Shown: positions 7,435 to 7,892 of the stretch, piece after piece
Position numbering within the stretch: position 1 is the first letter of the stretch
Layout of the letters: every line of letters begins with the position of its first letter
Assembly (NCBI RefSeq): GCF_003334335.1
Contig: NZ_QOWQ01000064.1
From: Escherichia coli
GTDB taxonomy: Bacteria > Pseudomonadota > Gammaproteobacteria > Enterobacterales > Enterobacteriaceae
DNA length: 10,732 nucleotides
Direction: 5' to 3' (one strand)
Position numbers and translations under genes: made by a program
Notes under the pieces: model-generated
Database searches by the model: none
The model's input: only the letters and a program-made list of their open reading frames with translations
Told to the model about the DNA's origin: nothing

Positions 7435-7463
7435 TTGGCGAGGTGACGTGAGTTAAGTAGAAT
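7435..7463 (+). promoter_or_regulatory. Candidate promoter of the hok mRNA
   Basis: -35 TTGGCG (7435-7440), 17-nt spacer, -10 TAGAAT (7458-7463); the predicted start near 7470 coincides with the 5' box that pairs with the mRNA 3' end. Confidence 0.3.
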
Positions 7464-7639
7464 GGCTGCGGGTGCTTGAGGCTATCTGTCTCAGGCATGA
7501 ACACTGAAAGGCAGATAGAGAAAAGCCCCAGTTAACATTTCGCGTCCTGCAAGACGCTTAACATTAATCTGAGGCCCAATCTATGTCTCACAAATGTAGG
7601 TTAGCCTCTTACGTGCCGAAAGGCAAGGGGAAGCAGGCT

Positions 7640-7795
7640 ATGAAGCAGCAAAAGGCGATGTTAATCGCCCTGATCGTCATCTGTTTAACCGTCATAGTGA
7701 CGGCACTGGTAACGAGGAAAGACCTCTGCGAGGTACGACTCCGAACCGGCCAGACGGAGGTCGCTGTCTTCACAGCTTACGAACCTGAGGAGTAA
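7640..7795 (+). CDS. hokD: Hok/Gef-family type I toxin, 51 aa (HokD/RelF-like)
   Basis: MKQQKAMLIALIVICLTVIVTALVTRKDLCEVRLRTGQTEVAVFTAYEPEE: single TM helix plus conserved C-terminal periplasmic motif of Hok proteins. An in-frame upstream extension (7583-7639, MSHKCRLASYVPKGKGKQA) may act as the mok-like coupling frame. Confidence 0.85.
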   Translation: MKQQKAMLIALIVICLTVIVTALVTRKDLCEVRLRTGQTEVAVFTAYEPEE

Positions 7796-7854
7796 GAGAC
7801 CTGGCGGGGGAGAAATCCCTCGCCACCTCTGATGTGTCAGGCATCCTCAACGCA

Positions 7855-7892
7855 CCCGCACTTAACCCGGTTCGGCGGGTTTTGTTTTTTTC
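7855..7892 (+). terminator. Rho-independent terminator at the end of the hok mRNA
   Basis: GC stem CCCGC/GCGGG (7855-7859 / 7875-7879) followed by TTTTGTTTTTTT. Confidence 0.5.

Follow-up and report, generated by a model that had tools for sequence, protein, structure and literature searches.

An apparently complete hok/sok toxin-antitoxin cassette of the hokD/hokW lineage in a Qin-like lambdoid prophage of Escherichia coli

Introduction

Does a hok-like toxin gene next to a prophage-borne QueH gene stand as a bare open reading frame (ORF), or does it retain the leader, the promoters and the antisense RNA of a complete toxin-antitoxin locus, and which role could such a locus play? We addressed this question for a stretch of E. 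coli DNA of 10,732 nucleotides, referred to here as the window. The initial annotation had read positions 7435 to 7892 as a complete hok-type locus, and all elements that it named were recovered at the same coordinates or within a few bases. Thus, 7435-7892 is very probably a complete hok/sok cassette of the hokD/hokW lineage, located in the nin (early-right) region of a Qin-like lambdoid E. coli prophage. The regulatory core of this reading, i.e. a tac/fbi-like pairing between the 5' and 3' ends, a mok-like leader ORF and a Sok-type antisense gene, is borne out by the Rfam family RF01794, by a switch in the predicted mRNA fold and by the -10 hexamer of sokW. The RF01794 match spans 7470-7645 on the hok-sense strand and covers the complete model (positions 1-157) with 120.5 bits and E=1e-27, the gathering score of the family being 59 bits.

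The cassette is of an already known kind and represents an ordinary copy of a textbook antisense-RNA system. E. coli O104:H4 (e.g. 2011C-3493) and numerous further genomes contain it with 100% identity, their annotation being limited to hokD, and 446 E. coli records carry it at an identity of at least 99%. Since earlier work characterised a prophage copy with 93% identity, the discovery value is small. The gain lies in annotation: base-exact positions are now available for the leader ORF, for the Sok RNA and for the regulatory boxes, none of which appears in the RefSeq record of this DNA. The latter contains the hokD coding sequence (CDS) and a doubtful minus-strand ORF of 59 amino acids over the terminator.

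The Hok toxin and its in-frame leader

The coding part of the cassette consists of the following features.

7640..7795, plus strand: hok toxin CDS, 51 amino acids, MKQQKAMLIALIVICLTVIVTALVTRKDLCEVRLRTGQTEVAVFTAYEPEE; hokD in RefSeq
7625..7630, plus strand: hok Shine-Dalgarno (SD) sequence AAGGGG, located by alignments; AAGGAG in relatives, with G 7628 specific to this allele
7583..7639, plus strand: leader (mok-equivalent) frame of 19 codons, in frame with hok and giving a 70-amino-acid ORF at 7583-7795

The toxin matches the full Pfam model PF01848 (HOK_GEF, positions 1-42, E=1.9e-22) and PHROG 251, 'MokW-like host killing' (E=1e-32), while the NCBIfam Hok subfamily model scores 49 bits, which is under its curated cut-off of 73. 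Identical residues amount to 46 of 51 with Sp5-type HokW, 40 of 51 with HokC and 23 of 51 with R1 Hok. None of the 65 distinct relatives has a disrupted ORF, and nucleotide diversity (pi) is very low, with 0.004 at codon positions 1 and 2. The CDS also contains a TACG editing motif at 7778-7781; a tRNA-Arg-like local hairpin was sought around it by folding, and no stable local hairpin is predicted there.

The proposed in-frame upstream extension exists as well. Its ATG at 7583 lies 57 nt upstream of hok and 8 nt behind a GAGG sequence at 7571-7574, and its frame runs through the hok start. As judged from the sequences, this arrangement is not unusual: it corresponds to the mokC/hokC design of K-12 and is the majority form in the clade. 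Among the 65 distinct close relatives, the leader is in frame at 57 nt in 52 and at 66 nt in one; eight carry a 19-amino-acid ORF with an ATGA overlap, two have an R1-like +1 frame, one further sequence has this frame with ATA, and one has no start codon. Leader translation running into the hok initiation region would constitute the predicted mok-type coupling, and for R1 it was reported that the leader has to be translated only up to this region (PMC9841398).

Promoter, mRNA and terminator

The transcription unit is delimited by three features.

7435..7463, plus strand: hok (mok-hok) promoter, -35 TTGGCG at 7435-7440, spacer of 17 nt, -10 TAGAAT at 7458-7463
7470..7886, plus strand: full-length hok mRNA; the 5' end corresponds to Rfam model position 1, and the 3' end is approximate, in the T run of the terminator
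7864..7892, plus strand: intrinsic terminator found by scan, stem-loop at 7864-7881 followed by the T run

The promoter-like element noticed earlier is the sole sigma-70-like match in a scan of 7300-8000, for which shuffled sequences yield 0.5 matches on average. Its -10 element is conserved among relatives, whereas the -35 element lies in DNA that varies between them, because the shared homology begins only at 7435-7458. At the other end, homology among relatives stops at 7883-7892, with the query itself having ended at 7892.

Transcription is predicted to start at approx. 7470, 7 nt past the -10 element, which leaves a leader of 170 nt up to the hok ATG and of 113 nt up to the leader-ORF ATG. 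The length of roughly 230 nt that had been given for the leader therefore has to be corrected; this figure is obtained when counting starts at the stop codon of QueH.

The minimum free energy (MFE) structure of 7470-7886 reaches -170.8 kcal/mol (z=-6.6), and none of 100 shuffled sequences is as stable. When this structure was compared with 40 homologues, 91.3% of the cells were paired, compared to approx. 40% in slid controls, and 30 pairs were changed on both sides, compared to 11.8 +/- 2.5 in shuffles, none of which (0/500) reached the observed number.

Regulatory RNA elements

The elements tac, fbi, ucb and dcb have been defined previously (PMC9841398), and the corresponding segments of the window are as follows.

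7470..7481, plus strand: tac (translational activator element, 5' box), GGGUGCUUGAGG; pairs with fbi in the full-length MFE structure
7482..7518, plus strand: 5' stem-loop of the leader, present in the MFE structure; one pair varies as A-U, G-C or U-A (compensatory) among relatives
7523..7529, plus strand: ucb, anti-SD box (AAGCCCC), invariant in 40 homologues
7571..7608, plus strand: sokT/mok translation-initiation hairpin with SD GAGGC (7571-7575) base-paired to dcb GCCUC (7604-7608), the leader ATG (7583-7585) located in the upper stem and a loop at 7587-7593
7802..7825, plus strand: GC-rich 3' stem-loop of 10 bp, present in the MFE structure; 7 of 10 pairs changed on both sides among homologues
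7845..7857, plus strand: fbi (fold-back inhibitory element), CCUCAAcGCACCC; complementary to tac, with bulged C 7851

The initial annotation had pointed out that the box at 7470-7481 recurs as its complement at 7845-7857 just before the terminator, and had proposed folding as a check. The two segments are indeed complementary over 6+6 bp with a single bulged C, and when 7470-7886 was folded, the predicted MFE structure contained this 12-bp tac:fbi helix. The duplex alone has a computed energy of -21.5 kcal/mol, which is matched by 5 of 500 shuffled 3' tails. The pairing is also present in the MFE structures of six homologues, including an R1-type hok, and across 40 homologues 98.3% of the helix is paired, R1-type sequences showing a U-A to C-G double change.

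Folding of the full-length and of the 3'-truncated mRNA reproduced, in silico, the published switch from tac:fbi to tac:ucb: in the MFE structure of the truncated mRNA, tac moves onto ucb (AAGCCCC). For some homologues, the predicted MFE structure after truncation does not include the tac:ucb form. In the nascent transcript of 36 nt, tac is predicted to pair with 7488-7498 in a metastable hairpin of -16.9 kcal/mol. The sokT hairpin has a local fold of -13.3 kcal/mol (z=-3.2), and its SD and dcb columns are invariant in the 40 homologues. By analogy with R1 (PMC9841398), the truncated mRNA that results from processing would end with the hairpin at 7802-7825.

In the full-length MFE structures of homologues, ucb pairs with the mok SD GAGGC, whereas in that of the window its partner is GGGG 7627-7630 of the hok SD and not the leader SD. 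This results from the allele-specific A-to-G change at 7628. The ucb:GGGG helix (7526-7529:7627-7630) was rejected as a conserved feature, since the CG pair 7527:7629 occurs in just one of 40 sequences; it is window-specific.

The Sok antisense RNA

On the opposite strand, the leader-ORF start is predicted to be covered by a cis-encoded Sok RNA.

7591 to 7513, minus strand: predicted Sok RNA of approx. 79 nt, single-stranded 5' tail, long hairpin and U-rich 3' end GGGGCUUUUCUCUAUCU
7598..7626, minus strand: Sok promoter, -35 TTGCCT (plus 7626-7621), spacer of 17 nt, -10 TAACCT (plus 7603-7598)

Homology to sokC as annotated in K-12 was used to position the ends of the RNA; the 5' end of sokC corresponds to position +8 of the mok ATG. 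The putative start lies 7 nt past the -10 element, and the predicted fold has an energy of -31.4 kcal/mol (z=-4.9). For sokW, Takada et al. (PMC8621323) reported a complementarity of 71 nt.

A minus-strand promoter with its -35 element at 7621-7626 and its -10 element at 7598-7603 had already been suggested as a candidate, and the segment 7598-7626 turned out to be 100% identical to the promoter region of sokW in the phage Sp5. It matches the consensus at only 7 of 12 positions and was for this reason not called by the generic promoter scan; we accept it because of homology and of a published sokW mutation. Its position is homologous to the promoters of R1 sok (R1 type TTGCGC/TATCCT), sokC and sokW. 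The mutation in question affects the sokW -10 element (Takada et al., PMC8621323): the 'pro-less' variant (primers YO-421/422) replaces TAGGTTA, of which AGGTTA corresponds to window 7598-7603.

A hypervariable island of 22 nt at 7576-7597 was observed in the upper sokT hairpin, where it comprises the first Sok nucleotides and the flanks of the leader ATG. Otherwise near-identical hokD/hokW cassettes carry approx. eight sharply different alleles of this island, and its pi is 0.32, compared to 0.02-0.06 in the adjacent leader. As Sok is encoded antisense to its target, any change in the island alters Sok and target together. The alleles could conceivably act as 'specificity groups', in analogy to the incompatibility groups of plasmids that are set by antisense-RNA loops, with the variety of leader frames as a by-product, but we consider this unlikely. 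If true, each of several lambdoid prophages in one cell would be able to regulate its own Hok separately from the others. Among 17 IMG/VR genomes with at least two copies, a small sample in which some pairs may be duplicated contigs, there was no sign that co-resident copies avoid shared island alleles: 7 of 24 pairs were identical, compared to 10.5% expected for random pairs. In the set of papers that we searched, no report of Sok cross-talk among homologues was found.

Genomic setting

Downstream of the cassette, the genes for DUF968, RusA and Q follow. Upstream, QueH is present in just 12 of 71 close relatives, and hence there is no conserved linkage between hok and QueH. Among lambdoid prophages, the cassette moves as a discrete module of approx. 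440 bp that is not tied to QueH.

Proposed mechanism and possible roles

The course of events described here is modelled on R1 hok/sok and Sp5 hokW-sokW by homology. The constitutive promoter would give rise to an mRNA of approx. 417 nt, in which a metastable hairpin would hold tac as long as the transcript is nascent. In the full-length mRNA, tac would pair with fbi near the 3' end and the ribosome site of the leader ORF would be sequestered, so that the mRNA would be neither translated nor bound by Sok. Slow 3' trimming up to the hairpin at 7802-7825 would then remove fbi, upon which tac would pair with ucb and the sokT initiation hairpin would become exposed. An abundant but unstable Sok of approx. 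79 nt, transcribed from the opposite strand, would pair over the leader ATG and block leader translation and thereby the coupled translation of hok, and the Sok:mRNA duplex would be cut by RNase III. Once Sok synthesis stops, the stable truncated mRNA would be translated, and the 51-amino-acid Hok would depolarise the inner membrane. For this allele, toxicity, neutralisation by Sok, RNase III cleavage and 3' processing are predictions from hokW-sokW and R1.

Regarding the biological role, we tentatively lean towards assistance of lysis. When the prophage is induced, Sok may vanish, and growth arrest and lysis may set in earlier owing to Hok and so raise phage release; as an assignment for this cassette, this is plausible though short of probable, and the role was measured for hokW-sokW, which belongs to a different phage and encodes a toxin differing at 5 of 51 residues. 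In that system, HokW is toxic and is neutralised by sokW, an activity that depends on the sokW -10 element, on RNase III and on Hfq (PMC8621323). Mitomycin C removes sokW, HokW appears, and the phage yield is approx. 2-fold higher with the locus (PMC8621323).

The same device could instead serve prophage addiction by post-segregational killing, in which the loss of the prophage or of its cargo QueH would deplete Sok first and leave Hok, translated from the stable mRNA, to kill the cell. This is the classical role of hok/sok on plasmid R1 (PMC9841398; PMC8621323), hok genes are four-fold enriched in prophages (10.1101/2025.08.07.668861), and all regulatory parts are intact in the window. However, no change in lysogen growth was reported for Sp5 with hokW-sokW deleted (PMC8621323), prophages seldom excise and, when they do, mostly kill the cell in any case, and the occurrence of QueH in few of the relatives argues against an addiction to this cargo. 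According to Pedersen & Gerdes 1999, as cited in 10.1101/2025.08.07.668861, the chromosomal hokA, hokB and hokC gave no post-segregational killing. On balance, addiction appears rather unlikely.

In abortive infection or exclusion, an infecting phage would halt host transcription, Sok would decay, and early killing by Hok would lower the yield of the superinfecting phage. Exclusion of T4 by R1 hok/sok was reported (Pecota & Wood 1996, as cited in PMC8621323), and many prophage morons are defence genes; on the other hand, PADLOC found no model matching Hok or its neighbours, and a large survey detected no enrichment of hok beside defence systems (10.1101/2025.08.07.668861), which makes this role improbable. 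It is very unlikely that the cassette is intact in appearance but silent, i.e. a selfish or decaying relic that spreads by recombination of lambdoid prophages and affects neither host nor phage: all five hok loci of K-12 are regarded as inactivated (PMC5630033), with hokD there devoid of everything upstream of 7626, and the non-consensus hok SD AAGGGG could be locked by the window-specific pairing with ucb, but none of the known elements is missing and all are conserved, the relatives uniformly preserve the Hok ORF, double changes that maintain the structure occur, many records contain this exact sequence, and the 93%-identical hokW-sokW is active (PMC8621323).

Comparison with known hok/sok systems

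The closest characterised relative is hokW-sokW of the Stx2 phage Sp5 and of 933W-type phages, with 92.5% DNA identity over the mRNA. Both loci share the leader of 170 nt, the extra hairpin extension of 18 nt in the Sok stem, the tac and fbi sequences, the in-frame leader ORF and the lambdoid prophage setting. They differ in the allele of the hypervariable island (TCTCACAAATG in the window and CTGAACACATG in the Sp5 type), in the hok SD (AAGGGG versus AAGGAG) and in five residues of Hok, at the C-terminus and elsewhere. In addition, the Sp5 type continues into different DNA after fbi, without the terminator sequence of 7864-7881, and its neighbours are different, QueH being present in the window.

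The resemblance of the toxin to HokD/RelF and the contrast with a bare toxin ORF, both noted initially, apply to hokD (relF) of K-12. This gene lies in the cryptic prophage Qin, a Qin-type prophage with DicF/dicB, at the same place upstream of a DUF968 (ydfU-like) gene and Q. It is 97.7% identical to the window over 7626-7889 (265 nt), the only part that it retains, and this common segment contains the hok SD, the CDS, the 3' hairpin, fbi and the terminator. In contrast, the promoter, tac, ucb, the leader ORF, the Sok gene and the Sok -10 element are missing from K-12 hokD, and relBE replaces the lost upstream part, with relE ending 71 nt upstream of hokD. Thus, the window carries the intact form, and K-12 hokD is a truncated remnant of it.

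The K-12 locus hokC/mokC/sokC (gef) has the same in-frame leader of 19 codons, mokC and hokC share their stop codon, and the annotation places sokC across the mokC start with an overlap of 9 nt, which is the same Sok position as in the window. It scores 118 bits with RF01794 and has a tac sequence identical to that of the window, but its DNA identity is 69% and the Sok-hairpin extension of 18 nt is absent. The fbi of hokC is lost because IS186 is located 20 nt after hokC. A '3' partner' of tac returned for hokC by duplex search was rejected as an fbi comparator; it is not significant, being matched in 48 of 500 shuffles, and lies in IS186-disrupted DNA.

In hok/mok/sok (parB) of R1, the elements occur in the same order as in the window, i.e. 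tac, 5' hairpin, ucb, Sok hairpin, mok SD and ATG, dcb with the Sok -10, Sok -35, hok SD, hok, 3' hairpin, fbi and terminator. The same pairing between the 5' and 3' ends is predicted, and GCCTCTTAC and AAAGCCCC are invariant, although DNA identity is only approx. 49% and 23 of 51 protein residues are identical. While the window leader is in frame with hok, R1 mok (70 amino acids, starting 58 nt upstream) is in the +1 frame, and tac/fbi of R1 read GGCGCUU/AAGCGCC compared to GGGUGCUUGAGG/CCUCAAcGCACCC in the window. R1 hok/mok/sok is plasmid-borne, with a proven role in post-segregational killing, whereas the cassette described here shares its architecture in a prophage setting.

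The toxin transcription unit

The 51-aa ORF that the initial annotation took for a hok-type toxin matches Pfam HOK_GEF (E=1.9e-22). The promoter-like element described in front of it, TTGGCG-17-TAGAAT at 7435-7463, is the sole sigma-70-like site that a promoter scan of 7300-8000 returned, and scanning likewise yielded a sole terminator-like site, at 7864-7881 plus a T run. The Rfam model RF01794 ('sok') covers 7470-7645 as a complete model with 120.5 bits (gathering score 59). As this match starts at 7470, the 5' end of the mRNA is placed there, 7 nt past the -10. This gives a leader of 170 nt to the hok ATG and of 113 nt to an upstream ATG, instead of the roughly 230 nt initially estimated. 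In every locus scanned, K-12 included, the 'sok' model falls on the hok-sense strand (here and, for example, in the homologous loci L084, L085 and L086), and the annotated sokC of K-12 lies on the strand opposite to its RF01794 match. Thus, RF01794 describes the hok mRNA leader and not the Sok antisense RNA.

Folding of the mRNA

The 5' box tac, GGGUGCUUGAGG (7470-7481), can form 6+6 base pairs with one bulged C with the 3' box fbi, CCUCAAcGCACCC (7845-7857). The presence of a reverse complement of the 5' box before the terminator had been noticed earlier, and folding bears it out, because the two boxes pair in the minimum-energy structure (MFE) of 7470-7886 (-170.8 kcal/mol, z=-6.6). The isolated duplex has -21.5 kcal/mol, a stability that 5 of 500 shuffled 3' tails attain, and six homologues, among them plasmid loci encoding the Hok protein of plasmid R1, are predicted to pair in the same way. 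When the MFE structure of the window is imposed on an alignment of 40 homologues, 91.3% is paired versus 33-42% with the partners slid, a control biased towards this structure, which comes from a single member of the alignment. Pairs changed on both sides number 30 versus 11.8 +/- 2.5 in shuffles, and none of 500 shuffles reaches 30.

In R1, the full-length mRNA has tac paired with fbi and the mok SD sequestered by the anti-SD box ucb; once the 3' end has been trimmed, tac switches to ucb and the mok SD to dcb, and Sok is able to bind, while a metastable 5' hairpin blocks translation as long as transcription proceeds (Le Rhun et al., PMC9841398). All of these regulatory elements can be placed in the window by predicted folds. 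With tac on fbi in the MFE of the full-length RNA, the other elements on the hok-sense strand are:

7472-7482 with 7488-7498: hairpin predicted for the nascent first 36 nt, -16.9 kcal/mol, z=-3.8
7523-7529: AAGCCCC, to which tac shifts in the MFE upon deletion from 7844 onward
7571-7575 with 7604-7608: GAGGC predicted to pair with GCCUC, the leader ATG being in the stem of that hairpin
7802-7825: 10-bp GC-rich hairpin 5' of fbi in the MFE; the R1 work puts the 3' end of the processed mRNA at its equivalent (PMC9841398)

In the window's own MFE, ucb lies on GGGG at 7627-7630 and not on the leader SD; in the homologues, it pairs with the leader SD (MFE), in line with the published R1 scheme. Pair 7527:7629 of the ucb:GGGG helix exists in one of the 40 sequences, and G at 7628 is confined to the window's own allele group, while nearly all relatives have A. 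This A-to-G change turns the hok SD from AAGGAG to AAGGGG. The CCCC:GGGG pairing of ucb in the predicted full-length fold is therefore attributed to the allele-specific substitution at 7628.

At 7778-7781, the Tyr47 codon TAC and the G after it constitute a TadA A-to-I editing motif, and this site is reported to be edited in K-12 hokD, converting Tyr to Cys (PMC5630033). UACGAA shows no variation across the 40 hok loci aligned, the R1 type among them, and no stable hairpin is predicted locally around 7778-7781.

The antisense Sok gene

The candidate Sok promoter on the minus strand consists of TTGCCT (plus 7626-7621), a 17-nt spacer and TAACCT (plus 7603-7598). It is weak compared with the consensus (7/12), and a generic scan gave no call. 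It aligns exactly with the Sok promoters of R1-type loci (TTGCGC/TATCCT) and of K-12 hokC, and 7598-7626 are 100% identical to the 933W/Sp5-type locus. According to the primers, the 'pro-less' sokW mutant of that locus carries TAGGTTA replaced by CCGGCTC, which abolished protection from HokW (Takada et al., PMC8621323); the replaced heptamer corresponds to window 7597-7603. The proposal of a Sok-type promoter at these sites is thus supported by homologous position, by identity and by a relative in which the -10 was mutated, although for the window itself the promoter is predicted.

The annotated 5' end of K-12 sokC is 8 nt inside mokC. Transferring the sokC ends predicts a 79-nt Sok RNA from 7591 to about 7513, whose fold (-31.4 kcal/mol, z=-4.9) has a long hairpin between an unpaired 5' tail and a GGGGCUUUUCUCU tail. 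The complementarity of sokW is 71 nt (Takada et al., PMC8621323). In contrast to hokC and R1, the clade of the window carries an 18-nt insertion that lengthens the Sok hairpin.

Leader ORF frames and a hypervariable island

The in-frame upstream extension was correctly recognized; its ATG at 7583 precedes the hok start by 57 nt (19 codons). Of 65 distinct close relatives, drawn from IMG/VR and GenBank, 52 have the leader ORF in frame at 57 nt (70 aa) and one more has it in frame at 66 nt. In eight relatives, a 19-aa leader ORF ends in a TGA overlapping the hok ATG (ATGA), two have the R1-like +1 frame (68 aa), one more has that spacing but ATA, and one has a leader without a start codon. All three frames (window 7583-7642, L004-L083) are used among cassettes with 98-100% identical Hok. 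This diversity fits published evidence that what counts is translation as far as the hok initiation region, not the Mok product (PMC9841398). In K-12, mokC and hokC likewise share a stop codon and differ by 19 codons, so that the in-frame leader is no oddity.

In a cassette that is otherwise nearly invariant, a 22-nt island (7576-7597) spans the sequence on either side of the leader ATG plus the loop of the sokT hairpin, at which the leader ORF initiates, and it comprises the first Sok nucleotides and the spacer between the Sok -10 and its start. Its diversity (pi=0.32) far exceeds that of the neighbouring leader (0.02-0.06) and of hok third codon positions (0.015), with the CDS values depressed because the set was picked by Hok identity. 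The 120 IMG/VR loci comprise about eight discrete island alleles, and copies resident in the same genome did not avoid sharing an allele: 7 of 24 pairs were identical versus 10.5% expected.

Genomic setting

The following features surround or overlap the cassette:

1019-1070, minus strand: DicF antisense sRNA, Rfam RF00039, 72.5 bits, full length
6716-7402: QueH-like ORF directly upstream of the cassette, RefSeq epoxyqueuosine reductase, PHROG 3217
7837-8016, minus strand: 59-aa ORF over fbi, the hok terminator and the downstream spacer, RefSeq 'hypothetical protein'
downstream of 7435-7892: 90-aa ORF, followed by DUF968/HNH, RusA and antiterminator Q genes

Chromosomal prophage DNA in several E. 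coli strains is 99.9% identical to the whole window, and 521 bases around the cassette recur with 100% identity in E. coli O104:H4 and many other genomes, where RefSeq annotates only 'hokD' (window 7640-7795) beside 'epoxyqueuosine reductase QueH'. The presence of DicF in the window and of dicB/ydfD in the O104:H4 locus identifies a Qin-like (Qin/Kim-type) lambdoid prophage. Phage Evi has a shorter ORF at the position of the 59-aa ORF, annotated as 'Mobile element protein'; the two ORFs are probably artefacts of calling genes across RNA elements.

Homology among relatives starts at 7435-7458 and stops at 7883-7892, with a query that itself spanned 7435-7892 only, and the cassette is therefore a self-contained module of about 440 bp with its left edge inside its own promoter. 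In the 71 close relatives with full flanks, the downstream genes are common to 50 and QueH-like DNA is found upstream in 12. QueH and the cassette are therefore independent modules, and the suggested tie between them is unsupported.

Biological role

Homology gives high confidence in the inferred molecular mechanism but less certainty about the biological role. HokW of Sp5 is toxic, and protection by sokW requires RNase III and Hfq. Upon mitomycin C addition, sokW disappears and HokW then builds up in the inner membrane about 1 h ahead of endolysin, and deleting hokW-sokW halves phage release (PMC8621323). By analogy with this locus, which is 92.5% identical to the cassette, a role in earlier lysis and phage release is taken as the likeliest of the possible roles. 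Post-segregational killing, the classical plasmid role, is possible, but was absent for the chromosomal hok loci tested (10.1101/2025.08.07.668861). T4 exclusion is also possible, but hok is not enriched near defence systems (10.1101/2025.08.07.668861) and no PADLOC model matches.

Comparison with known hok loci

K-12 hokD (relF) is homologous to the window over 7626-7889 only (97.7%); relE ends 71 nt upstream of it. The hok SD, CDS, 3' hairpin, fbi and terminator have survived in K-12, but its promoter, tac, ucb, leader ORF and Sok gene are gone, in agreement with the contrast that the initial annotation drew to a bare toxin ORF. Since the downstream DUF968 gene (K-12 ydfU) is homologous as well (81.6%), the window represents the K-12 hokD locus in intact form, at the corresponding position of a Qin-type prophage.

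The relB-relE-hok order of K-12 (L094), in which hok has no leader, recurs on a Phytobacter IncF plasmid (L091, NZ_AP028042.1), in which no Rfam leader match was found. Complete hokD-type cassettes of about 87-88% identity are carried by many non-mobilizable plasmids of 90-100 kb (H53-H79), which we take to be P1-like phage-plasmids. The sole one inspected, pHYEC7-mcr1 (L093), is IncY; its tac/fbi pairing is intact and its terminator is different.

Thus, the observation of a complete hok-type locus is confirmed and its interpretation supported. The locus is intact and belongs to a family that has been studied thoroughly, and a near-identical relative has been characterised by experiment, so that it counts as already known.
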